38,532 nucleotides of DNA from a virus, in IMG/VR virus record IMGVR_UViG_3300018412_000005; one strand, written 5' to 3'. Both the position numbers and the translations under genes were made by a program. Position 1 is the stretch's first letter. Every line of letters begins with the position of its first letter. Below, piece after piece: positions 124 to 35,995 of the stretch. A model generated the notes under the pieces. It was not told the DNA's origin. It was given only the letters and a program-made list of their open reading frames with translations, and ran no database searches.

Positions 124-3100
124 CAGTATCAAGAGGGGATGCAGAATTAATCCAGGCTGAGGAAAAGGCGGCAGAAGAAGCGCCGGCGCCAGTTGGTGAA
201 ACAACTCAGCAGGCAGTTAGTGCAGATAATCGCCCGGCCAAGATGTTTACCATTACGCCAGATATGGGAATTGGTGAAGGTGGCCAGAAAACTAAATTCA
301 AGAACAACCTTGAAGCAATCAAGATCCTGAAGTCTCTTGAGGCTGAAGGACGCCAGGCAACGCCAGAAGAACAGCAAGCGCTTGCGCGTTATGTTGGTTG
401 GGGCGGTATTCCTCAAGCGTTCTATGGTGATGCAGGTAAAGTATCAAAGGGGTGGGAGAAAGAGGCGGCACAGCTTAAAGAGTTGCTTACAGATGCTGAG
501 TATGATGCAGCGCGCCGAAGCACGCAGGATGCCCACTACACAAGCCAGGAGATTGTTACTTCAATCTGGAAGGCTGTTAAGGATATGGGTTTTACTGGTG
601 GCCGAGTGCTTGAGCCTTCAGTTGGTACTGGTAACTTTTTAGGGATGATGCCGGCAGGTGTTCGAGGAAAAAGCCAGATCACCGGCGTAGAGCTTGATCA
701 TATTACAGGCGGGATTGCTTCACACCTTTACCCAGGCGCAAACATTAAAACGCCAATGGGCTTTCAAGACTTCACTATGCCTGATGGTTACTTTGATCTG
801 GCAATAGGGAACCCGCCATTTGGGAGCCAGAAGCTATATGACGGTAAGCGCAAAGACTTATCTAAGTTCAGCATTCACAACTACTTCTTTGCAAAAAGCC
901 TGGATGGCCTGAAGCCTGGCGGCGTACTTGCAATGGTTGTCTCTAACCGCCTTATGGATGGTCAAAGCAATCAGGCAGCGCGTGAGTACATGGCTAATCG
1001 CGCAGACTTCCTTGGTGCGGTCAGGTTGCCTAATAACGCATTCCTAAAGAATGCCGGCACAGAAGTTACCACTGACATTGTTTTCCTTCAGAAGCGAGAG
1101 GAAGGCACGCCGCGTAAAGGTACTTCATGGAAGCGTACTGAATCAGTGAAAGACGCCAACGGCATTGAAACACCACTGAATGAATATTTTGTAAAGAATC
1201 CCGACATGATGCTTGGTGAATGGGGTGCATACGGCTCAATGTATGGACCTAATGACCCGGCGCTTGTTGCGCGTGAAGGTCAGGACACTGGCGCATTGTT
1301 GCGTGAGGCATTGGCTAAGTTACCAAAAGGGATTATGGCAGAGTCAAAAGCGGCGCCGGCAAAAGAAGAAGTGAAGCTATCCACCAGCGTTGATAACGTC
1401 AAAGTTGGTAGCATGTTCATTGATGGCGGCAAGGTGATGGTTCGCCAGGATAATGAGCTTGGTAGTATTCAGGCTGAGCCGGTTGAGTTTGCCAGCGACA
1501 AAGCGCGCCAGCGCGTTGAGGGCATGATCAAGGTTCGTGATGTGTTCACGGACTTGAGGAAGGCCCAGCTTACTGAAGGCGTGAAAGATGCTGCGCTTGA
1601 CGCGTTGCGCACGCGTCTTAATCGTGAGTATGACGCGTTTGTTAAGGCGCATGGTCCAATAAACTCAGATGCCAACAAGCGCTTATTCCGTGATGATCCC
1701 ACCTGGCCGCAGATTGCAGCATTGGAAGAATCATTCGATAAAGGCATTACGCCTGCAATGGCAAAGAAAACCGGCGAGCAATCGCGCAAGCCAAGCGCAA
1801 GCAAGGCTGCAATTTTCTTCAAGCGTACTCAGTCACCATATAAAGCGCCTACCAAAGCGGCAACCGCCAAGGATGCAATGGCGGCAAGTCTTTCAGAGTA
1901 TGGCGCCATTGATATGGATTACATGGCGAAGCTTTACAACAAGACGCCAGGATACATTGCCAATGAGCTTGGTGATCTTGTGTATGAGGTTGAGCCTGGC
2001 CGATTTGAAACGCGTGACCAATACCTTAGCGGCAATGTTAAGCAGAAGCTTGCCCAGGCAAGGCAGCTTGCCAAGGTAGACAGTAAGTACAAGCGCAACG
2101 TGCAAGCGCTTGAGGCGGTCCAGCCTGAAGATATTGAGGCCGTTGACATTGATGTTAAGCCTGGCGCTCACTGGTTGCCGCGTGAAGATATGAAGTCTTT
2201 TGTGGATCATGTGCTTGGCAATGAAAGCGGTAAGGCCGTGTATATTCCGACCAATGCTAAGTGGTCTATTGATGGTGTGCCTACAGAAGCAGCGCGCTCG
2301 CGTTGGGGTACTGACCGCGTGCAGGTGACTGATATTGTGGCAGCAGCTGCAAACCAGAAGCAGATTGTTGTGCGTGATCGCATTGACGAAAACACAACAA
2401 GAGTGAATGAGGCAGCTACCAATGCGGCCAATGAAAAGGTTGAGCGCTTAAAGGCTGAGTTTCGCCGTTGGGTATGGCAGGACGATGCGCGCCGTAGTCG
2501 GTTGACCAGGATTTATAACGACACATTTAACACCGATCGCTTGCGAGAGTTTGACGGTGGCCATCTTACATTCCCTGGCAAAGTAAGTGATGACATTATC
2601 AAGTTGCGCCCACACCAGGCTAATGCAGTTTGGCGTATCGTGCAGTCTGGAACTACCTTACTGGATCACGTTGTTGGTGCCGGCAAGACGTTCACTATGA
2701 TTGCTGGCGCTATGGAAATGCGCCGCATGGGCCGAGCTAAAAAGCCTATGTTTGTTGTTCCTAATCACCTTGTTGGCCAGTGGGCAGAGGACTTTACCAA
2801 GCTTTACCCTGGCGCTAATGTGCTGGCAGCCACCAAGAAGGACTTTGAGAAAGGAAACCGCAAGCGCCTATTTGCGCGCATTGCCACCGGTGATTGGGAT
2901 GCTGTTATTGTCGCTCACTCATCGTTCGGTAAAGTGGAAATGGATAAGGAGTTCCAGGAGCGATTTATCAATCAGCAGATCCGTGACATTGATGAGGCTA
3001 TCCAGAATATCCGGGCCCAGGATGGGCAGAAGTCACGAAGCATTAAGCAGATTGAGAAGCAGAAAGAGCGCCTTCAGGAAAAGCTGAAGAAGCTGTTTGA

Positions 3101-11998: not shown

Positions 11999-12307
11999 TC
12001 CTTTAATGGTAACTATCCCTTTCTCAATTAGCCGGCGCCATGTGCGAACCATTGCCCGGCGCATGTACCACTCGCGTTCTTCACCTGTCATTGACGCGTC
12101 ATTGTTTCGCCTGTCTATCGCATCATGGCAAGCGTGGCACGCATAGCACGCGCTAATATCGTCTGACTTGGTGCTCATGCCGTTTGATTCGTCAGGCAAA
12201 TGAGCAAGGATTGTAGTTTGCCAGTTGAAGTTGCACACGCCGACAATTTGCAGCGTGCATTCCTCATCCCTGGCGCTATCACGTAGTTTCTTGGATTCGA
12301 TTTTCAT
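11990..12307 (-). CDS. DUF1364 / YbcO-like putative nuclease
   Basis: Motifs ECTLQIVGVCN...TILAHL...ACYACHDAIDRR resemble E. coli DLP12 YbcO (RECQVRIPGVCN...VLAHI...ACSACHDEIDRR). I prefer the ATG at 12307 over the GTG at 12313. Confidence 0.7.
   Translation of the reverse strand: MKIESKKLRDSARDEECTLQIVGVCNFNWQTTILAHLPDESNGMSTKSDDISACYACHACHDAIDRRNNDASMTGEEREWYMRRAMVRTWRRLIEKGIVTIKGMK
12072..12099. repeat. 11-bp-phased hexamer array L8 (3 units, middle one degenerate)
   Basis: TCGCGT at 12072, ACCTGT at 12083 and ACGCGT at 12094. Confidence 0.5.
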
Positions 12308-12309
12308 GA

Positions 12310-12912
12310 TCACCCCATTGCCAGTAGTTGGTTAACGGCTTGCTCAGCTTGCGCTTCATTCTCAAAGGTCCTGGATAAGATAAACTTCCAGACAACGCTG
12401 AAGGCGGCCTTGTAGAACCTGGTAAACTCATCCTGGTCCATGGCGTTGAAGTTGATTGATAGCGGCACCTTGCGCAACCCGGTAGGCGTTACTTCATAGC
12501 GGAAGTAGCCGGCTTCAATCTTTACCCATTCGTGAAGGGCCTGTTTTGACTTCTCAGGCGCTTCTATGTGTTGGGCGCGTCTTTGTCTTAACTCAGTCAA
12601 GAACGCCTTACAGGCGCGGCGAATGGCGCCAGAATTGCCACCTTGCCGATCAAGCCAGTCTGAAAACTTCAGAAGTGTGCCTTTTTCGCTGGCGCTGATA
12701 AGGCCGCCTTGTGGTTCCCAATACTCAAAAGCCAGTTCAAGCAGGCCGCCCCAATACAGCCGGTGGTGCTGTATCGAGCGCGGCTTTAGCATGACAGCTT
12801 TCACCCGCACGCCCTGGCCAAGCTTCCAGGATTTAACCAGGTCCTGATCTGTTTGTGTTACCGGGCGCAATGATCCGTCCTGGCACTTCACCAGTGTTAT
12901 TTCAGTTGCCAT
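12310..12912 (-). CDS. DUF1367-like nin-region protein
   Basis: It is 200 aa and lies directly upstream of the DUF1364 gene, as in lambdoid nin regions. The family call is from memory of N-terminal similarity only. Confidence 0.4.
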   Translation of the reverse strand: MATEITLVKCQDGSLRPVTQTDQDLVKSWKLGQGVRVKAVMLKPRSIQHHRLYWGGLLELAFEYWEPQGGLISASEKGTLLKFSDWLDRQGGNSGAIRRACKAFLTELRQRRAQHIEAPEKSKQALHEWVKIEAGYFRYEVTPTGLRKVPLSINFNAMDQDEFTRFYKAAFSVVWKFILSRTFENEAQAEQAVNQLLAMG

Positions 12913-13435
12913 AAAAACCTACCCTGAAGTCGTGATAAAACTGGCGAGTTGGCGCATAGTTTCCAAGCGCTGTGAATATCGCTACCTGGCATGGGAATTG
13001 TGGGCTTTGTGGTTTTCCTTTTTTATCTAAAAACCTGGTACCGTCAGGCCGCAAAAACTGAAGCCTGAAAGGCATCCTGATTATTGTGTCTGCCTTTTCC
13101 AAGGCGTAACGTGAATATCCTGTTTCAGTGTTATCAGGCATTATTACGCAAGTAGTATTGCCATCATATTCAGCTTCTCGCCATGCTTTCTCAAGCCATG
13201 GCTGAATATCACTGAAAGGAGGATTGCACCAGGTCAAAGGCGCCCATGGCAGTTCAAGCCCATTCTGATCATTTTCCAGGCTGTAAAATTTTTCAGCCTT
13301 GGCTGTTTGGGGTAGCGCGCAAGCGTCAAGGTCAAACTCTTTTGCCATTAGATCTTCAAGTGAGGCAATGAACCATGGTGGAGTTTGCGCGCAATCCTTC
13401 TCGCTGATTGGAGTGTTTGAATTGTAATTTTTCAT
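12902..13435 (-). CDS. Phage Dam-family N6-adenine DNA methyltransferase
   Basis: It has QTPPWF near the N-terminus, a DLDACA segment and catalytic WCNPPFS. The 177-aa size is typical of small phage Dam-type methylases. Confidence 0.75.
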   Translation of the reverse strand: MKNYNSNTPISEKDCAQTPPWFIASLEDLMAKEFDLDACALPQTAKAEKFYSLENDQNGLELPWAPLTWCNPPFSDIQPWLEKAWREAEYDGNTTCVIMPDNTETGYSRYALEKADTIIRMPFRLQFLRPDGTRFLDKKGKPQSPQFPCQVAIFTALGNYAPTRQFYHDFRVGFYGN

Positions 13436-14076
13436 TCCTGTTCCTTGTGTTCAAGTTGCATCATTGCCATGGCCTGGCTGATTGATACCGGGCCTTTCTT
13501 CTGGTTTGAACCAGATTGATGGACCAGTAAAGCCTGGCGAGTGTCACCGATAAGGACCGGCTCAGGCATTGCGTCCATGTGGCCTGTTCGTGAGTTTGAC
13601 GCCTCAGTAACGCCAATTAGTTTTGATGGGTACCGCTCAGGTGGTCGGTTCAAGTATCCCTTGTAGCGCTTGGTGAACTCATTGCGCTTGAATGGGAGTT
13701 CATCATTGGTGATCTTGCAGAGTTCTATCCAGCCGCCCATATCCTCAATGCACGCCATGATTGCTGGCTCATCAAATACCACTGTCCCGTATGAACCAAT
13801 GCGCTCAATGGTGTTTTCAACCTTTGACCATGCTTGTAGTGATCGGCTTTCTGGATCACCGTCAATGTGTCTAACCAGGTCGGCAGGCTTAGGCATGAAT
13901 CTACCGTCACCTGGATCATTGATATGCGCATCCAGGACGCGCTTAACGTCTGCCAGGTCATAGCGATACAGCGCACGAAAGGCCATGCCAAGCGCGGCGT
14001 CACTTGGTTGTTTTCCGTATAGCTCACAGGTTGCAGACCATACGGCGGTGAAGTTAGGGAAGTCAGACTTTTGCAT
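13432..14076 (-). CDS. Lambda P-like replication protein (putative helicase loader)
   Basis: It lies downstream of the initiator. The RFMPKPADLV segment resembles lambda P FLPSPGQFV. I prefer the ATG at 14076 with a GAGGA RBS over the TTG at 14091. Confidence 0.45.
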   Translation of the reverse strand: MQKSDFPNFTAVWSATCELYGKQPSDAALGMAFRALYRYDLADVKRVLDAHINDPGDGRFMPKPADLVRHIDGDPESRSLQAWSKVENTIERIGSYGTVVFDEPAIMACIEDMGGWIELCKITNDELPFKRNEFTKRYKGYLNRPPERYPSKLIGVTEASNSRTGHMDAMPEPVLIGDTRQALLVHQSGSNQKKGPVSISQAMAMMQLEHKEQE

Positions 14077-14476
14077 TGCGGTGGTCCTCAAGTTTTTTCA
14101 TACACAGATCAACCACACGGTTGCAGGTAGCAACGTCCATCATTCCGATATGGCAATCCTCTTGGTTAATTCCTAATTGCTCAGCAAGCCAGGCGTAAGC
14201 TTCATTGCGTTGCATAATTCCATCTTGCCAAAGCCAGTCAAAAGCCTGGTGCGCATTGCCTTTGGCTTTTCGTAAAACCTTATCGGCAAGCCTTCCAAGT
14301 GGCTTATCGCCGTCACCCTGGCCATTGCCTGGTTTGTGGCATCCAACGTATGCAGGAGGGTGCCCGTTATCGCAATGCCAGAATTTCAGGTGATACAGGT
14401 CGCGCCGGTGCGGGTATATCACTTCGCCTGTCACAAGGTTTGCGGCATTACCGCAGTAGTCACAAATCACTGTCAT
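14063..14476 (-). CDS. DUF3268-type zinc-finger protein
   Basis: Motifs seen: CDYCG...WHCDNGHPPAYVGCHK...PLGRLA...AHQAFDWLW...EAYAWLAEQLGI...CHIGMMD. I prefer the ATG at 14476 with an AAGGA RBS over the TTG at 14506. Confidence 0.65.
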   Translation of the reverse strand: MTVICDYCGNAANLVTGEVIYPHRRDLYHLKFWHCDNGHPPAYVGCHKPGNGQGDGDKPLGRLADKVLRKAKGNAHQAFDWLWQDGIMQRNEAYAWLAEQLGINQEDCHIGMMDVATCNRVVDLCMKKLEDHRNAKV

Positions 14477-14486
14477 GGGTTTGTCC

Positions 14487-15380
14487 TTAGTCTGGTAAGT
14501 CGTCAATCATCGCGCTGGCTCTATCGGCCTGGTTTCTTACGCGGCTTTCAAATTGCTCAAGGGTTTCTGTGCCTGGTCCGTTCAAGTAGGTTGGTTGGAA
14601 CTTGGCTACGTTGTTGGCGAATTGCTCAACCTTGTCACCAGATCGGCAAATCAAAGTCAAATCATCGTAAACAGTGCCTGAGTCATTTTGCCCCATGTGG
14701 TGAGGTGACTTTGCACAACCTTCGATTGCCTGCTTGATCTGGTCAACCGTGTAACCTTCCTTCAGCCTTGCCTCAATGCACTTCTTGCGCTTGTCGGTAA
14801 GTTTGGCTTGTGAGGTTTTTCCCATGGTTGTGATCCAGTGGTCGAAAACTTCTTTCACCTGGTCGCGTGTTTGGCGCGACATATTATTCCTTTCCCCTTC
14901 CCTTTCCTTTTCCCTTTCCTTTTCCCCTTCTGTGCTGTGCTCTACGCGTGGTTCACGCGTGACAAGTTCAGTGTTACTTATTTGCTCAGGCTCAGTAATT
15001 GCGGGGCTTTCAGGCTTGGCTCCCTCATTGGTGAGGGTACCAACTGACATATCAGGCAGCGTTGACTCACTTTCCCGGTTGTTTATGTGCTGGTGGCGCG
15101 TAAAAGTAGGAATGCAGCCATAAAACTCACCTTCAACTTCGTACTTAACGAGAAAGTCACGCGATGCTAACGCGTCAATTACGCGTTCAAAGTCGAGATC
15201 ATCATAGGGCAATATATCCAGCTTTAATTGCTTAGGGCGCCAGCGGAAGCGCCCGGCTTTATCACAAACACAGAACAAGCCGATGAAGGCCAGGCGAACC
15301 GGTAAGCCGGTTTCTAGTTCTAAGTCGTGTAGGTCCTCATGCCTGAATAAGTCAGGCTTTACTGTTCGTATGCGTGCCAT
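14487..15380 (-). CDS. Replication initiator (lambda O analogue) with phage conserved C-terminal domain
   Basis: The N-terminus IRTVKPDLFRHEDL...RLAFIGLFCVCDKAGR is typical of prophage replication proteins. It is followed by an acidic low-complexity linker (EGEKEREKEREGER) and a C-terminal VFDHW...KLTDKRK...EGY...I..AI segment. It is the second gene of the leftward operon, after the HTH. Confidence 0.6.
   Translation of the reverse strand: MARIRTVKPDLFRHEDLHDLELETGLPVRLAFIGLFCVCDKAGRFRWRPKQLKLDILPYDDLDFERVIDALASRDFLVKYEVEGEFYGCIPTFTRHQHINNRESESTLPDMSVGTLTNEGAKPESPAITEPEQISNTELVTREPRVEHSTEGEKEREKEREGERNNMSRQTRDQVKEVFDHWITTMGKTSQAKLTDKRKKCIEARLKEGYTVDQIKQAIEGCAKSPHHMGQNDSGTVYDDLTLICRSGDKVEQFANNVAKFQPTYLNGPGTETLEQFESRVRNQADRASAMIDDLPD
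14863..14879. repeat. 11-bp-phased hexamer pair L2a
   Basis: TCGCGT at 14863 and GCGCGA at 14874, immediately left of the homopyrimidine tract. Confidence 0.65.
14887..14931. repeat. 45-nt homopyrimidine tract with three tandem 12-mers
   Basis: Only C and T occur on the + strand from 14887 to 14931. The 12-mers are cctttccccttc (14889-14900), cctttccttttc (14901-14912) and cctttccttttc (14913-14924). The tract encodes the (K/G)ERE linker of the initiator. Confidence 0.9.
14944..14960. repeat. 11-bp-phased hexamer pair L2b
   Basis: ACGCGT at 14944 and 14955. Together they form the inverted repeat ACGCGTG-gtt-CACGCGT, immediately right of the homopyrimidine tract. Confidence 0.8.
15148..15186. 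repeat. 11-bp-phased hexamer array L3 (4 units)
   Basis: ACGAGA at 15148, ACGCGA at 15159, ACGCGT at 15170 and ACGCGT at 15181. Confidence 0.8.
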
Positions 15381-15382
15381 GG

Positions 15383-15598
15383 TTATTCCTTGTTGTAGTC
15401 CTGTTCCCCCAATGCAATAAATTCAGATGCAGTGAGCTCAAAGATTGCAGCCAGCTTTTCAATGTTTGCCAGGCTCACCCGTTCAGAGTTCGCAATAGTG
15501 CTGGTGCGCGTGCGGCTTATGCCAAGTTGCTCAGATAGCCAGGTCACGGTCTTACCGCGTTGTGCCAGGGCTACCTTTACTGAGCGGCCAATGTTCAT
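15383..15598 (-). CDS. XRE-family helix-turn-helix regulator (Cro-like)
   Basis: It is 71 aa. The segment VTWLSEQLGISRTRTSTIANSE is a classical HTH. It is the first gene of the leftward operon at the divergent control region. Confidence 0.8.
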   Translation of the reverse strand: MNIGRSVKVALAQRGKTVTWLSEQLGISRTRTSTIANSERVSLANIEKLAAIFELTASEFIALGEQDYNKE

Positions 15599-22013: not shown

Positions 22014-22052
22014 TCGCGTTATTGTTGCGTGCTTCACGCGTGAGGCACGCGT
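22014..22052. repeat. 11-bp-phased hexamer array L4 (4 units, intergenic)
   Basis: TCGCGT at 22014, TTGCGT at 22025, ACGCGT at 22036 and ACGCGT at 22047. The array also folds as GCGTGC-ttcacgcgtgag-GCACGC. Confidence 0.8.
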
Positions 22053-22103
22053 TAACTTGTTAGCTGTGAAAATAGACCGCCAGCGAAACCGATTATAAAG
22101 AGG

Positions 22104-22131
22104 CTGACTTATATTGACATTGGTTTATAAT
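22104..22131 (+). promoter_or_regulatory. Candidate promoter of the lysis/packaging operon
   Basis: CTGACT (22104-22109), a 16-nt spacer, then perfect TATAAT (22126-22131). It lies in the 182-nt gap after ssb. TATTGACA occurs twice here (22112, 22140) and once in the early control region (15672). Confidence 0.45.
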
Positions 22132-22165
22132 CAACCCTGTATTGACAATAAAAACGGGGTGTTCT

Positions 22166-22594
22166 ATGGCGTTCAAATTTAGTGAAAGAAGCAAGAGCAG
22201 GATGGCCGGCGTTCATCCTGAGCTTGTTTTGGTGTTTCACGAAGCTTTAGCTGTATCACCTATCGACTTTGGTATACCTGAGTATGGCGGTTTAAGGAGT
22301 GCGGAAGAACAGCACTCGCTATTCCTGGATAACAAGAGCAAGGCCGATGGTTACAACAAGCTAAGCAATCACCAGTCTGGTAATGCACTGGACTTCTACG
22401 CCTACCTTAATGGTTCGGCAAGTTGGGATAAGGTTCACCTGGCAATGGTGGCCGCAACAATCCTTTCAACAGCTGAGCGATTAAAAGCGCAAGGCAAGAT
22501 CACAATTTCACTACGATGGGGCGGCACGTTTGGAAACAAAGGCCGCTCTTTCCATGGTTGGGACTATCCGCACATGGAGGTTATCAATGCTTGA
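22166..22594 (+). CDS. Endolysin, peptidase M15 (L-alanyl-D-glutamate peptidase type)
   Basis: Motifs seen: GVHPELV...IDFGIPEYGGLRSAEEQ...HQSGNALDF...LRWGG...WDYPHMEV. I prefer the ATG at 22166 over the TTG at 22142. Confidence 0.75.
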   Translation: MAFKFSERSKSRMAGVHPELVLVFHEALAVSPIDFGIPEYGGLRSAEEQHSLFLDNKSKADGYNKLSNHQSGNALDFYAYLNGSASWDKVHLAMVAATILSTAERLKAQGKITISLRWGGTFGNKGRSFHGWDYPHMEVINA

Positions 22595-23742: not shown

Positions 23743-24366
23743 ATGAGTGTAACGCTGACAGAAGAACAGCTTGAGCTTGGCAGTAAGCTGACACCGCTTC
23801 AGCGTAAGACTGTTATCAACCTGGCTACAGGGAAGATGAGCCAGCGTGAGGCGTATTACGCAGCTGGTGGCAAGACAAAGAGCGAGAAATCAGCTGATGC
23901 AATAGTTAGTCGTATGCTAACTGACGCTAAGGTGAAGAAGTTTTATGAGTCACTAATGAATGCGGCCGCCAGTGATGCAGTAATGACAAGACAGGAGGCG
24001 CTCGAAAGGCTCACGCGTGCAGCACGCGTCACGATGACAGATATTGCTGAATTTGCTGAGCAGGTTGTTGGTGAAGATGAAGATGGCAACCCGGTAAAGC
24101 AAACAGTGTGGCGAATCAAGAACAGTGATGAGCTCACGCCTGAAGCGGCAGCGGCAATCAAGTCTGTTACAGCCACCAAGTTTGGGCCAAAGCTTGAATT
24201 GCATGATCCGCATAGCGCCATCAAGCAGATTGCAGACCTGGAAGGATGGAACGCGCCAAGTAAGCATGAAGTAACCGGCAAGGATGGTAAGCCATTGCAG
24301 ATACAGGCTGATGTGAAGTCACCTGACATTGCAGAGGCTATCAACAAGGTACTTGAGCGCCTATGA
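23743..24366 (+). CDS. terS: Terminase small subunit
   Basis: LTPLQRKTVINLATGKMSQREAYYAAG is a typical TerS N-terminal HTH. It lies immediately upstream of TerL with an ATGA overlap. Confidence 0.7.
   Translation: MSVTLTEEQLELGSKLTPLQRKTVINLATGKMSQREAYYAAGGKTKSEKSADAIVSRMLTDAKVKKFYESLMNAAASDAVMTRQEALERLTRAARVTMTDIAEFAEQVVGEDEDGNPVKQTVWRIKNSDELTPEAAAAIKSVTATKFGPKLELHDPHSAIKQIADLEGWNAPSKHEVTGKDGKPLQIQADVKSPDIAEAINKVLERL
24013..24029. repeat. 11-bp-phased hexamer pair L5 (inside terS)
   Basis: ACGCGT at 24013 and 24024. Confidence 0.8.
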
Positions 24367-25997: not shown

Positions 25998-28064
25998 ATG
26001 CTACCAGGTAATGAACCAATTAAGACCAGGGATGATGACAGCCAAGAGGCAATACTTCAGGAAATACGAGAGCGAGCAGCGCACGCTGTTACTTGTTGGA
26101 AGCATAACTTTGATGCAGCCCAGGAAGATATTTCATTCCTGGCCGGTCAACAATGGCCTGAGTCTGTGCGCAAGGAACGTGAGGACGAGGGCCGCCCATG
26201 CTTGACGCTGAACAAGTTGCCTCAATACGTTGACCAGGTATTGGGTGATCAGCGCCAGAATCGCCCTGCAATCCAGGTGCATCCAGTCGAAGCCAATGCC
26301 ACCAAGGATACCAGCAAGGTGCCAAACGTGGCCGGCACTTCTGATTACAGCCTGGCAGAAGTGTATGAGAGCCTGATCCGCAACATCGAGTACACCAGCA
26401 ACGCAGAAGCGCACTATGACAACGCATTCCAGCACGCCGTTGAAGGTGGCTTTGGTTGGTTGCGCGTTCTCACCAAGTACAGCGCTGATGATGCCTTTGA
26501 CCTTGACCTGTGCATCAAGAGTATTCACAACCGCTTTGCTGTGTTGATGGACCCGGACGCAACAGAGCCAGACTACAGTGATGCAAACTGGTGTTTTATC
26601 AGCGAGCGCATGAGCAAGGCAGAGTTTAAAAAGCGGTACCCAGGAAAAGCCGTTGGTGATCTGAGTGATGCTGAGCGTGGTGAGTACAGCTGGTGGACCA
26701 ATGAAGAAGGTGTGCGTGTATCTGAATACTTCTACCGTGAACCGGTAACTCGCAAGCTGTTATTGCTCAGTGATGGCCGTACCGTGTGGGAAGATGAAGT
26801 AAAGGATGTGCTTGACGAGTTGCGCGAGCTTGGCACGACAGTCACGCGTGAAAGACGCGTCAAAACCTACAAAGTTAAATGGATGAAGGTTACTGCATAC
26901 GATGTGCTAGAAGGCCCGGTTGATTGGCCTGGCTCAACCATTCCTGTGGCACCTGTGCTTGGTAAGGAAATGGTTATCGGTGACAAGACCTATTACCGTG
27001 GTCTGATTCGCTTTGGTAAGGATGCCCAGCGTATGCACAACTACTGGATGACAGCAGCAACAGAGCGTGTTGCATTGGCACCAAAGGCCCCATGGGTAGC
27101 GCCAGCAGAATCCATTGAAGGCTATGAGGAAGAATGGAACCAGGCAAACCGCAAGAACATGAGCGTTCTACGCTATAACGCTTTACCAGGTGTTGACCGT
27201 CCTCAGCGTGATATGCCGGCCAGTATGCCAGCGGCAGAGCTTCAGCTTGCATTGAGCGCTACCGATGAAATGAAAGCAACTATTGGCTTGTATGATGCCA
27301 GCGTTGGCGCACAAGGGAATGAGCAAAGCGGCAAGGCTATTCTTGCGCGCCAGCGCCAGGGTGATCGCGGTACCTTTGCCTATATCGACAACCTGAGCCG
27401 GGCTATTCGCCGTGTTGGGCAGATCCTGATTGAGCTTATCCCGCGAGTGTATGACAGCGAACGAGTGTTGCGCTTGCGCTTCCAGGATGGTGAAGGTGAT
27501 TGGGTTCAGATAAATCAGATGGTCATGGATGAGGAAACACAGAAGCCGGTCCTGGTTAACGATATTGCAGCAGGTAAGTTTGATGTGACTGTGAAGGCTG
27601 GCCCAAGCTATCAAACACAGCGCATGGAAGCAGCAGACAGTTTAATGCAGTTTGTTCAGGCTGTGCCGGCAGCTGGTGGCGTGGTCCTTGATCTTATCGC
27701 CAAGAATATGGATTGGCCTGGCGCGCAGGATATTGCACGCCGACTACAGAAAACATTGCCGCCTGGCATTCTTGATCAGGATGAAATGGAGGAAGCAGGT
27801 ATTGAACCGCCTCAACCGTCACCAGAGCAGCAAGCCAATATGGCACAGGCTCAAGCCGATATGGAGAAAGCCAAGGCAGACACAGCGAAAGCCCAGGCCG
27901 ATATGGCAATGGCACAAGCTAAGACAGCTGAAGCACAAGCGAAGTTGGCAGAAATAGAGCAGGCGGCCATGATGGCAGGTCCTGGAACATTGGAAGATAC
28001 AGTGCGTAACCTGGTTGCTGAGGCTATGGCCGAGTTAATGGCTCAGAGCCAAGGGAATGCTTAA
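25998..28064 (+). CDS. Portal protein (P22-like)
   Basis: It is 688 aa and follows TerL. It has LTLNKLPQYVDQVLGDQRQNRPAIQV and a C-terminal Ala/Gln/Lys-rich helical extension resembling the P22 portal barrel. Confidence 0.85.
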   Translation: MLPGNEPIKTRDDDSQEAILQEIRERAAHAVTCWKHNFDAAQEDISFLAGQQWPESVRKEREDEGRPCLTLNKLPQYVDQVLGDQRQNRPAIQVHPVEANATKDTSKVPNVAGTSDYSLAEVYESLIRNIEYTSNAEAHYDNAFQHAVEGGFGWLRVLTKYSADDAFDLDLCIKSIHNRFAVLMDPDATEPDYSDANWCFISERMSKAEFKKRYPGKAVGDLSDAERGEYSWWTNEEGVRVSEYFYREPVTRKLLLLSDGRTVWEDEVKDVLDELRELGTTVTRERRVKTYKVKWMKVTAYDVLEGPVDWPGSTIPVAPVLGKEMVIGDKTYYRGLIRFGKDAQRMHNYWMTAATERVALAPKAPWVAPAESIEGYEEEWNQANRKNMSVLRYNALPGVDRPQRDMPASMPAAELQLALSATDEMKATIGLYDASVGAQGNEQSGKAILARQRQGDRGTFAYIDNLSRAIRRVGQILIELIPRVYDSERVLRLRFQDGEGDWVQINQMVMDEETQKPVLVNDIAAGKFDVTVKAGPSYQTQRMEAADSLMQFVQAVPAAGGVVLDLIAKNMDWPGAQDIARRLQKTLPPGILDQDEMEEAGIEPPQPSPEQQANMAQAQADMEKAKADTAKAQADMAMAQAKTAEAQAKLAEIEQAAMMAGPGTLEDTVRNLVAEAMAELMAQSQGNA
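26822..26860. repeat. 11-bp-phased hexamer array L6 (4 units)
   Basis: GCGCGA at 26822, GCACGA at 26833, ACGCGT at 26844 and ACGCGT at 26855. Confidence 0.75.
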
Positions 28065-35107: not shown

Positions 35108-35995
35108 ATGGCTAATGCTTTTGGAATTGACTTGGGCCAGGTTTACCGGACCGCAGAGGCAGTTAAGGGTGCGCGTCAGTCTCGCGAGCAGAACGCGTTA
35201 ATGATGGACTGGAAGAAAGAGGACCGCGAGGCAGCGCGCCAGCGAGGTAACGCTCTTGCTGATTTGCGCTCAAAGGCGTCAGCTGGTGATCCTCAGGCTA
35301 TGCAGGAGCTAAACGCTTTTGACCCTGAAGAAGCTAAGAAGATGCTTGAGTCACTAAGTAAGATGGATGATCGCCAGCGCCAGCAGACACAAGAGAACAT
35401 TGATGCGATCGGAAAAATGTCAGCCTATGTTCTTCAGTCTGAAAACCCTGAGCAGGCATACGAGCTTGCCAGGCAAAGCGTATCACCAGAGCTCGCAGCA
35501 AAGATGCCTGAGCAATACGACCCTAACTTCCTTCAAATGCAGCTTGCCAGAGCTCGCCAGGTTGATGAGTTGCTACAGAACCCTGAGCGCATGACGTTTG
35601 GCACAGAGGACCGACTGTATAAGGATGGCCGCGTTATCGAACGTACAACAAGCAGTCAAGAGCTTGACCGCCAGACAAGTCGGCAAAACGCGTTAACGCG
35701 TGCCAGTGGCGATGGCGGTCTAAAGTCAGCTGATGAGTCATTGATGTATCGTCAGGCTGGTGAGTTGCTTGGTGGTTTGTTTGATCAGCAAGGCAACCTT
35801 CAAAACCTTGACCCGGCCACACGCGGCAAGGTCCAGTCTATCGCAACTGAAGCGGCTAAAATTTATAGCCAAGGTGGCGTTACTCGCTCGCAAGCTGTAA
35901 CACAAGCAGCGAGAAAGCTTGGTATTCAGGTTCAAGATTTGGGGCAAAGTGGTAATATAGACCGCAACAAATTACTTGAAATGTATTCACAGTGA
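35108..35995 (+). CDS. Putative internal virion / ejection protein (295 aa)
   Basis: It is Q/R/E-rich and helical, with a GGAGG RBS. It lies directly upstream of the giant ORF in the ejection-protein slot. Confidence 0.45.
   Translation: MANAFGIDLGQVYRTAEAVKGARQSREQNALMMDWKKEDREAARQRGNALADLRSKASAGDPQAMQELNAFDPEEAKKMLESLSKMDDRQRQQTQENIDAIGKMSAYVLQSENPEQAYELARQSVSPELAAKMPEQYDPNFLQMQLARARQVDELLQNPERMTFGTEDRLYKDGRVIERTTSSQELDRQTSRQNALTRASGDGGLKSADESLMYRQAGELLGGLFDQQGNLQNLDPATRGKVQSIATEAAKIYSQGGVTRSQAVTQAARKLGIQVQDLGQSGNIDRNKLLEMYSQ
35171..35198. repeat. 11-bp-phased hexamer array L7 (3 units)
   Basis: GCGCGT at 35171, TCGCGA at 35182 and ACGCGT at 35193. Confidence 0.75.

Follow-up and report, generated by a model that had tools for sequence, protein, structure and literature searches.

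The replisome organizer of Bacillus phage SPP1, G38P, has an N-terminal DNA-binding domain, as is proposed here for another initiator, and binds repeats both in its own gene 38 (oriL) and at oriR, a distant site in the late region. The lambda origin consists of iterons and an AT-rich tract in the middle of gene O, and strand-specific single-strand binding has been reported for the O protein (PMC7466680). The stretch considered here, a phage DNA of 38,532 bp (IMG/VR record IMGVR_UViG_3300018412_000005; hereafter the window), encodes a replication initiator whose gene holds phased arrays of the hexamer ACGCGT and a long homopurine tract. Judged from its sequence, this locus is probably the replication origin of the phage, placed as in lambda and made of different parts.

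The hexamer ACGCGT is a palindrome that recurs at a start-to-start spacing of 11 bp and forms three arrays within the initiator gene (Table 1). The original prediction, which was made from the letters of the window without database searches, had proposed an origin made of these arrays, a 45-nucleotide (nt) C/T run of tandem 12-mers and an abutting AT stretch, and every one of these elements is present. Tandem Repeats Finder gives the run (homopurine on the sense strand of the gene) a period of 12 with 3.5 copies, and also a period of 6 with 7 copies; all other pure purine or pyrimidine stretches of the window are 16 nt or shorter. Array 1 had been described as a 4-unit array. Four units do stand in register, of which two are perfect, one has one mismatch and one has two mismatches, and relatives keep only three, so that the fourth unit is doubtful. 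Array 1 is read in three frames and spans codons 65-78, which encode the predicted recognition helix (residues 64-73) and the start of the wing; it sits in the part of the gene coding for the N-terminal domain, outside the linker. Arrays 2 and 3 and the purine tract occupy codons 141-173 in the linker-coding part.

The initiator matches phrog_16167 ('replication initiation protein') at E=5e-115 over residues 1-296, and its MARIRTVKP-type family includes 1042 homologues at E<=1e-5. An AlphaFold2 (AF2) model built from 49 homologues has a mean predicted local distance difference test (pLDDT) score of 84, with residues 124-157 below 50. The model is laid out as an N-terminal winged-helix-like domain (residues 1 to about 110), a disordered linker (about 124-157) and a helical C-terminal domain. 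In the N-terminal domain, predicted helices 28-38, 49-56 and 64-73 are followed by a beta hairpin (strands 78-82 and 85-89), an order that matches that of a winged helix-turn-helix (HTH). The top Foldseek matches in the PDB are mostly winged-helix DNA binders (ArsR/SmtB, MarR, BlaI, Fur, AspA, TubR); since all have E>=0.3, they are taken only as consistent with the order of secondary structures. A sequence search of the PDB returned no relative (best match E=0.31, spurious).

The protein had been called O-like in the original prediction. Pfam and NCBIfam searches gave no O-protein family, only a sub-threshold Phg_2220_C/TIGR02220 match in the C-terminal domain, and the PHROG families that are named 'O-like' match weakly and in the C-terminal half only. 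The assignment to phrog_16167 and the position of its members support the reading of the gene as a phage replication initiator. In the lambdoid phage HK639, cI, cro and cII are followed by a gene of unknown function, the initiator homologue and a lambda-P-family gene, so the phrog_16167-type family takes the place of lambda O. A lambda-P-family gene (PF06992, E down to 3.5e-50) lies directly 3' of the homologue in HK639, Vibrio phage 24E30.2 and P12026, and a gene of this family is also the next one downstream in loci L003 and L005. The homologue is followed by a DnaB-like helicase gene in JBD44 and by a DnaC-like gene in Mx8.

Table 1. Elements of the candidate origin, ACGCGT arrays elsewhere in the window and adjoining genes (positions in the window)
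Feature	Position	Strand	Description
Replication initiator gene	14487..15380	-	297 amino acids; phrog_16167 and AF2 domain layout
Array 1	15148..15186		ACGAGA, ACGCGA, ACGCGT, ACGCGT in 11-bp register
Array 2	14944..14960		ACGCGT-N5-ACGCGT, perfect; linker-coding, codons 141-146 (TREPRV)
Homopurine tract	14887..14931	- (sense strand)	45 nt, 47% GC; GGRAA-type units; encodes EGEKEREKEREGER
Short AT patch	14881..14888		atattatt, 8 nt; abuts the tract
Array 3	14863..14879		Degenerate pair TCGCGT-N5-GCGCGA
Dispersed array	1600..1638		ACGCGT, ACGCGT, TCGTGA, ACGCGT; inside giant DarB-like gene
Dispersed weak pair	12072..12099		TCGCGT ... ACGCGT at 22-bp distance; inside HNH gene; weakest site
Dispersed array	22014..22052		TCGCGT, TTGCGT, ACGCGT, ACGCGT; intergenic, after single-stranded DNA-binding protein gene and upstream of promoter-like sequence
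Dispersed two-unit array	24013..24029		Inside small-terminase gene; one hexamer degenerate in phage VvAW1
Dispersed array	26822..26860		GCGCGA, GCACGA, ACGCGT, ACGCGT; inside portal gene
Dispersed three-unit array	35171..35198		GCGCGT, TCGCGA, ACGCGT; near start of gene 35108-35995
Cro/CI-type HTH regulator gene	15383..15598	-	Directly upstream of initiator gene; head of leftward early operon
DUF3268 zinc-finger protein gene	14063-14506	-	Downstream of initiator gene (pair 13432..14506); candidate partner by position only
DUF6475 protein gene	13432-14091	-	Downstream of initiator gene; candidate helicase loader by position only

The arrangement resembles the lambda origin in several ways. The candidate lies inside the initiator gene in the part coding for the linker between domains, its dyad-symmetric repeats are putatively bound by the N-terminal domain, and a strand-asymmetric element, purine-rich on the sense strand, stands beside the repeats and is crossed by transcription. 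The parts themselves differ. The window has 6-bp palindromes at an 11-bp phase in two to three separate arrays, whereas lambda has four contiguous 19-bp iterons; one of the arrays falls within the part coding for the DNA-binding domain; and a G-rich (GGRAA)n tract of average stability stands where lambda has an AT-rich region. The initiator has no Pfam match to an O-protein family and no P-like neighbor, and arrays occur elsewhere in the genome. The original prediction of lambda-like logic fits the succession of arrays and tract in the linker-coding part, which is found in 40 of 64 distinct genes (see below), and does not fit the largest array, which lies in the N-domain coding part.

Other described origins share some of these features. 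SPP1 differs in its box sequences, in having an adjoining AT-rich region and in having two sites, compared with seven or more in the window. Iteron plasmids and P1 have winged-helix initiators and directly repeated, phased sites, and extra sites could likewise titrate or handcuff; the iterons of such plasmids are 17-22 bp long and about 22 bp apart and accompany an AT-rich unwinding element with DnaA boxes. An origin of the Rep_3 type was rejected for the window, where the initiator has no Pfam match to Rep_3 or another plasmid Rep domain, DnaA boxes are not enriched and the tract is not AT-rich. R-loop origins (ColE1 RNA II; T4 oriF/oriG) are comparable in that a transcript crossing the origin could form a stable hybrid, and differ in having no initiator-binding repeats. 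The principle of an origin within a gene is familiar, whereas the purine element that is not AT-rich, the overlap of binding sites with helix codons and the dispersed arrays are unusual. A literature search found no paper on an origin of this type, on ACGCGT iterons, on (GGGAA)n in phage origins or on the origin of VvAW1.

The module recurs in other phages. Two scans of IMG/VR gave 74 further loci which, with Ralstonia phage GP4 and two contigs found as protein hits, make 77 loci with 64 distinct homologous genes of 35-66% GC. Forty of these genes carry array 1, a linker array 2 and the tract, defined as a hexamer pair at nt 189-217, a linker array of 2-5 units in strict 11-bp phase and a sense-strand purine run of at least 17 nt. 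The loci with both arrays and the tract range from 38 to 66% GC and have several unrelated C-terminal domains. In about 40 foreign genes ACGCGT occurs three times, at nt 195, 206 and 217, in the same codons as array 1 of the window. Arrays 1 and 2 occur together or not at all with few exceptions (co-occurrence 41/3/0/20 among the 64 genes), and the distance from the last linker hexamer to the start of the tract has a median of 14 nt. Counterparts of array 2 hold 2-5 units at strict 11-bp phase, with five perfect units in one locus (L021). Array 3 is present in all loci that resemble Vibrio phage VvAW1, a relative of the window, and absent from most other lineages. The AAT(A)AT patch closes the tract in GP4 and in L018, L019 and L023, not in every relative. 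Helical phasing between arrays 1 and 2 was considered and rejected, as their distances of 158-226 bp show no consistent phase.

GP4 is one such phage. Its genome is 61 kb long with 62% GC, and within the 2.5-3 kb compared on each side of its initiator gene none of the window's neighboring genes was found. GP4 and its relatives encode a protein 70% identical to initiator residues 1-110, and the GP4 gene has ACGCGT, ACGCGT and TCGCGT at exactly the codons of array 1. Its linker-coding part has a second hexamer pair, followed by an 18-bp homopurine repeat in three copies and then by a weak third pair (TTGCGC-N5-TCGCGC), the counterpart of array 3. No exact hexamer pair occurs outside the initiator gene in the whole 61-kb GP4 genome, and no hexamer pair was found outside that gene within 10 kb on either side in any lineage other than that of VvAW1. 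By tblastn of the genes neighboring the initiator in the window, only the N-domain is common to the foreign loci that bear arrays; the Cro-like regulator and DUF3268 are not. The Cro-like HTH protein is thus unlikely to be the array binder and was rejected as a candidate. The C-domain type of the window is absent from half of the array-bearing foreign loci, and L003-L005 share this C-domain type yet have no arrays. From phage to phage, the hexamers and the tract go together with the N-domain. A lambda-like intragenic origin predicts that arrays and a following tract in the part coding for the linker should recur in this way where only the N-domain is shared, and the comparison supports a cassette composed of an N-domain and its presumed cognate DNA sites placed inside the gene.

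The sequence of the third helix is also linked to the arrays. Of 120 cluster representatives, 56 have the helix motif RV.[DH]A..[TS]R and 64 do not; the linker array's peptide footprint was found in 52 of the former and 15 of the latter (P=2e-15, not corrected for phylogeny). Members with N-domain identities of only 34-57% retain the tract, but their third helix is different and they lack ACGCGT altogether. In the MARARNIKP branch of the superfamily (HK639/L115, RSK1, JBD44/L117, 24E30.2, L003, L004), CTGATTCC repeats encoding DSLIPD-like peptides stand at the linker position. In this branch (HK639/RSK1/JBD44) the domains follow one another as in the window, the linker position likewise carries a tandem DNA repeat, and several members share the window's C-domain type and have a lambda-P-family gene next downstream. 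It differs in that the CTGATTCC units are pyrimidine-rich on the sense strand, ACGCGT arrays are absent and N-domain identity is 31-37%. Linker repeats that occur throughout the superfamily and change in sequence with the N-domain type are as expected of cognate sites, and repeats at the linker position are a general property of these initiators. The CTGATTCC repeat is common to phages of E. coli, Pseudomonas, Ralstonia and Vibrio, and HK639 has a 28-nt purine run just upstream of its CTGATTCC repeats.

The purine tract is the most widely kept element of the module. A (GGGAA)n-type tract on the sense strand is found at the same place in 60 of the 64 distinct genes, including those without hexamers, and wherever a tract was present in the members examined, its purines were on the sense strand. 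In closer relatives the tract is (GGGAA)n and its peptide GKGRE, because three units of 5 nt, itself not a multiple of three, make fifteen bases. Among members without hexamers, the sense-strand repeat at about nt 376-410 is (GGGAA)n, (GGAAG)n or (GGAAAA)n. At the position of the tract, (GGGAACA)n is present in Alderaan, a Streptomyces phage, and in Marinomonas phage P12026.

Several tests bear on whether the repeats are selected as DNA. When up to one mismatch is allowed, the window contains 7 copies of ACGCGT-N5-ACGCGT compared with 0.05 expected from shuffles, and the distances between CGCG cores in the window cluster at 11, 22 and 33 bp. The initiator gene was also resampled 20,000 times with synonymous codons according to the codon usage of the phage itself. 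Strict hexamer pairs number 2, compared with 0.0115 under resampling (P=1e-4); NCGCGN pairs at 11 bp number 4, compared with 0.13, a count that none of the 20,000 resamples reached; and the longest purine run of 45 nt compares with a mean of 13.9. The 11-bp phase puts successive hexamers into three reading frames, which a protein repeat cannot explain. Among VvAW1-like genomes, variable columns make up 3 of 84 in perfect hexamers, 6 of 66 in degenerate hexamers, 15 of 85 in spacers and 92 of 640 in flanks (Fisher P=0.002), and the hexamers of array 2 are invariant while the spacer varies. Phages of 57-66% GC retain the hexamers through TCA/GCA-CGC-GTx, GAC-GCG-TTR and ACG/TCG-CGT, which are unusual codons, and hexamers survive amino-acid changes from D to H (CAC-GCG) and from L to W (GCG-TGG). 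The arrays and the tract are selected at the DNA level and are not by-products of coding.

If the locus is an origin, its working can be pictured as follows. The N-domain of the initiator would bind the ACGCGT hexamers, which the 11-bp phasing would turn toward a single side of the helix. One lambda iteron would correspond to a dyad-symmetric 17-bp array of two units, and where more units follow, oligomers could assemble side by side. Binding at array 1 and at arrays 2 and 3, which flank the tract, would give a nucleoprotein complex that acts on the adjacent (GGRAA)n tract, where the duplex would open and the helicase enter. The tract would replace the AT-rich unwinding element of lambda, though not through low duplex stability. 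It might instead open through a non-B structure (H-DNA or a G-quadruplex) under supercoiling, through a persistent R-loop that the initiator gene's own purine-rich sense transcript would form, or through strand-specific single-strand binding by the initiator. For the first of these routes, the formation of H-DNA or G-quadruplexes by homopurine tracts under supercoiling is established. For the last, in addition to lambda O, a passage on plasmids (PMC4081077) describes Rep proteins as binding one strand of the unwinding element. In each phage, the variable C-terminal domain would recruit that phage's partner for helicase loading. Among the genes of the window, none for a helicase, primase or polymerase was seen, so the host enzymes would be used.

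Several points weigh against this model. The original prediction had likened the locus to lambda, where an easily melted region adjoins the iterons. The duplex energy of the tract is -61.0 kcal/mol per 45 nt compared with a genome mean of -63.8 (80th percentile); with this ordinary stability and its GC content, the tract does not qualify as an easily melted region. The AT patch extends over only 8 nt. The tract is neither AT-rich nor easily melted, and an opening step of this form has no proven precedent. The energies depend on the nearest-neighbor parameters used (Sugimoto 1995; SantaLucia 1998). The tract could also partly reflect a charged linker that is prone to slippage. DnaA boxes are absent near the candidate: sites with at most one mismatch number 8 in the window compared with 7.9 expected, and none lies in or beside the initiator gene. 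Binding of the N-domain to ACGCGT is only inferred, as are the start of replication at the locus and the route by which the tract would open. The Foldseek matches, with their high E values, give the modeled winged helix weak backing, and because the third helix is itself encoded by array 1, its association with the arrays is to some extent circular. Finally, the arrays were predicted as parts of an origin within the initiator gene; three do lie there, and six more stand elsewhere in the genome, none with a tract, for which the origin model has no need and which an origin-only reading does not account for.

One way in which the tract might act deserves separate mention. As the deepest conserved part of the module, it might work through a state other than the duplex, with a persistent R-loop of the purine-rich initiator mRNA on the pyrimidine template, beside the bound hexamers, opening or priming the origin and the displaced G-rich strand perhaps forming a quadruplex or triplex. 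This proposal is speculative and, on balance, unlikely to be correct. Its computed support is a gain in hybrid energy (RNA:DNA minus duplex) for the sense transcript at the tract of -17.4 kcal/mol per 40 nt, compared with -11.6 for the next best site, which makes the tract the extreme across both strands of the genome, with the nearest-neighbor parameters named above. A passage on T4 (PMC3016281) describes R-loops at its origins. If the proposal is true, R-loop initiation in the style of ColE1 and T4 would be merged with a lambda-style iteron origin, and the 'transcriptional activation' of phage origins would gain a mechanistic basis. Two corollaries would be that the recognition helix is encoded by the initiator's own binding sites and that the late-region sites of VvAW1-like phages let the initiator couple replication to late events.

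Some of the same observations can be read in terms of gene regulation. The arrays could be operator or roadblock sites for the initiator or another phage protein, acting on its own gene and on the late region, while the tract codes for a slippage-prone charged linker and the origin lies elsewhere. The six other array sites, of which one is intergenic, upstream of promoter-like sequence before the lysis and late genes, would suit such a role. The tract varies from 39 to 63 nt among VvAW1-like genomes, as a microsatellite might, and its G/E/K/R-rich peptide falls in a disordered segment. However, the arrays are confined to the initiator gene in GP4 and the other lineages examined, and the tract keeps its strand and its place across N-domains that are only 34-57% identical. 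Its units of 5, 6 or 7 nt are counted as non-codon units and its purine-only codons are far above expectation, and the adjacent Cro-like regulator is not common to the foreign loci with arrays. Regulation in place of an origin is improbable on this evidence, and the two functions are not mutually exclusive.

Somewhat less probable still is that arrays bound by the N-domain serve genome organization, copy control or titration, by handcuffing or by a partition-like tethering of a plasmid prophage, and not initiation, with the intragenic cluster being merely the densest. In iteron plasmids and P1, extra iterons are used for control. The dispersed arrays are conserved among VvAW1-like genomes, and VvAW1 is reported to give turbid plaques and to lack an integrase, and has been proposed to form a plasmid-like lysogen (PMC3558961). 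Against this, the intragenic cluster is the only one common across lineages and the only one with a tract, and no partition genes were seen either in the window or among the annotated genes of VvAW1. Where there are control iterons, an origin made of the same iterons is normally present as well, so a role of this kind would complement the proposed origin and not replace it. The dispersed arrays may be further places where the initiator binds, with a secondary role in control or titration or in coupling to late functions.

The repeats might also act as folded RNA or single-stranded DNA. A direct repeat of a palindrome is an inverted repeat as well, so each hexamer pair can fold into a small hairpin or cruciform with a stem of 6-7 bp and a loop of 3-5 nt, which could be a signal for priming or pausing or resemble a terminator. 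All adjacent pairs are able to fold, at -7 to -10 kcal/mol, and for arrays 2 and 3 the folds surpass those of shuffles (z=-2.3 and -2.5). The departures of array 3 from ACGCGT retain pairing (T-A, T.G), and the pair scores as terminator-like on the + strand. Four of the six folds are no better than shuffles, however, and the strict 11-bp phase held by arrays of 3-5 units is not needed by hairpins. Degenerate units (ACGCGA, TCGCGT) give uncompensated mismatches, and the bases that flank the hexamers do not consistently lengthen the stems. It is very unlikely that the hairpin is the functional unit. An Rfam search found nothing relevant, only a chance-level microRNA match (E=0.77) outside the gene. 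The hairpin of array 3 (14862-14880, + strand) has a 7-bp stem and a 5-nt loop followed by the T-rich ATATTATT, and it scores as an intrinsic-terminator-like element on the strand antisense to the initiator gene.

That the repeats arise by chance from protein sequence and base composition has a negligible probability: array 1 does overlap conserved residues (RV, DAL, SR/TR) and the tract does encode a plausible charged linker, but this explanation is contradicted by the shuffles and synonymous resampling, by codon choices made against GC bias and across amino-acid changes, and by hexamers conserved above their spacers.

The proposed intragenic origin would have consequences beyond this phage. 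The module is present in at least 40 distinct phage genes, with known hosts that include Vibrio and Ralstonia, and the tract reaches phages of Streptomyces and Marinomonas. If the origin model is true, a simple sequence signature would be at hand for finding origins in a large, unannotated group of phages, and N-domain and origin would form a portable cassette. The locus would also be a natural case in which to test how an origin that lacks an AT-rich element is opened, with an R-loop, H-DNA, a G-quadruplex and strand-specific binding as the candidate routes. Binding sites that overlap the codons of the presumed recognition helix would be an unusual co-evolutionary constraint, and this overlap may explain the 70% identity of N-domains between otherwise unlike phages.

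The window is closely related to VvAW1 (38,682 bp), with about 92% identity across a 2.8-kb replication region. It is a near-complete genome, a circularly permuted form of the whole, and the giant DarB-like gene spans both of its ends. The genome of VvAW1, a podovirus that infects V. vulnificus, is circularly permuted and terminally redundant, and the paper that describes it makes no mention of an origin or of repeats (PMC3558961). The initiator gene is the homologue of VvAW1 gp33 and the second gene of a leftward early operon with the order Cro/CI-type HTH regulator, initiator, DUF3268, DUF6475, Dam-like methyltransferase, NinB and HNH. GC skew tracks gene orientation in the window and was set aside as an origin marker.

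The gene downstream of the initiator had been predicted to be P-like. DUF6475 has no detectable similarity to lambda P, and BLASTP against P-family proteins gave E=0.9 and 10; the downstream pair, DUF3268 and DUF6475, was rejected as P-like. Relatives that share the C-domain type of the window do have a P-family neighbor. DUF6475 is also the immediate downstream neighbor of the initiator in L119 (2358-3017) and L120 (2423-3019). It is a recurrent neighbor of MARIRTVKP-type initiators, at the place where relatives have lambda-P-family genes, and by its position the protein is a candidate for an unrecognized helicase loader.

VvAW1 and the VvAW1-like IMG/VR contigs have all of the arrays at orthologous places. 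Most of the dispersed arrays lie inside late genes, and several run from weak, weak to strong, strong on the + strand. The intergenic array at 22014 is conserved in VvAW1 and L037. Two TTGACA motifs with AT-rich sequence downstream lie at 22100-22170, about 60-100 bp past this array and ahead of the next gene; the lysis and late genes may have their promoter region here. The array in the portal gene is present in all ten VvAW1-like loci that cover the site and absent from portal genes 75-79% identical. The loci with such portals (L031, L033-L036, L056; compared with 25998-28064 of the window; 57-66% GC) are free of ACGCGT over 5.5-21 kb, a length in which several copies are expected; the count in VvAW1-like loci is 4-14 and varies with locus length. 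This suggests either avoidance of MluI-type sites in those lineages or a gain of sites in the VvAW1 group along with its initiator type.

A further element may belong to the module. Between the last linker hexamer and the tract, five loci (L021, L022, L020, L119, L120) have a GTGCATGCAC-like palindrome encoding (V/K)HAQ or HAR, and the window has AGAGCACAGCACAG at this position. In L020 ACGCGT arrays are absent and GCACGTGC/GTGCATGCAC palindromes stand in their stead. Some members of the family (338-385 amino acids; L020/L076, which is IMG/VR 3300048930_001096, and P0008 and P0027) have a nuclease domain inserted between the N-domain and the purine tract, of the HNH type (PF01844/PF14279) or of the PF10544/PF13455 type.

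Annotation of these genes is uneven. In the GP4 record (NC_054964 18943-19896; L002:3001-3954), gp35 covers only the 3' part of the initiator gene, and one open reading frame of 317 codons comprises both gp35 and the unannotated part that codes for the N-domain. Several other records have two 'hypothetical proteins' beneath the initiator match, perhaps because the repeats disturb gene calling. The Dam-family N6-adenine methyltransferase gene of the window (12902-13435, - strand) has a tblastn match in L009 and none in VvAW1 or the other close relatives that cover the region; being patchy among close relatives, it is a small accessory-gene difference within the VvAW1 group.

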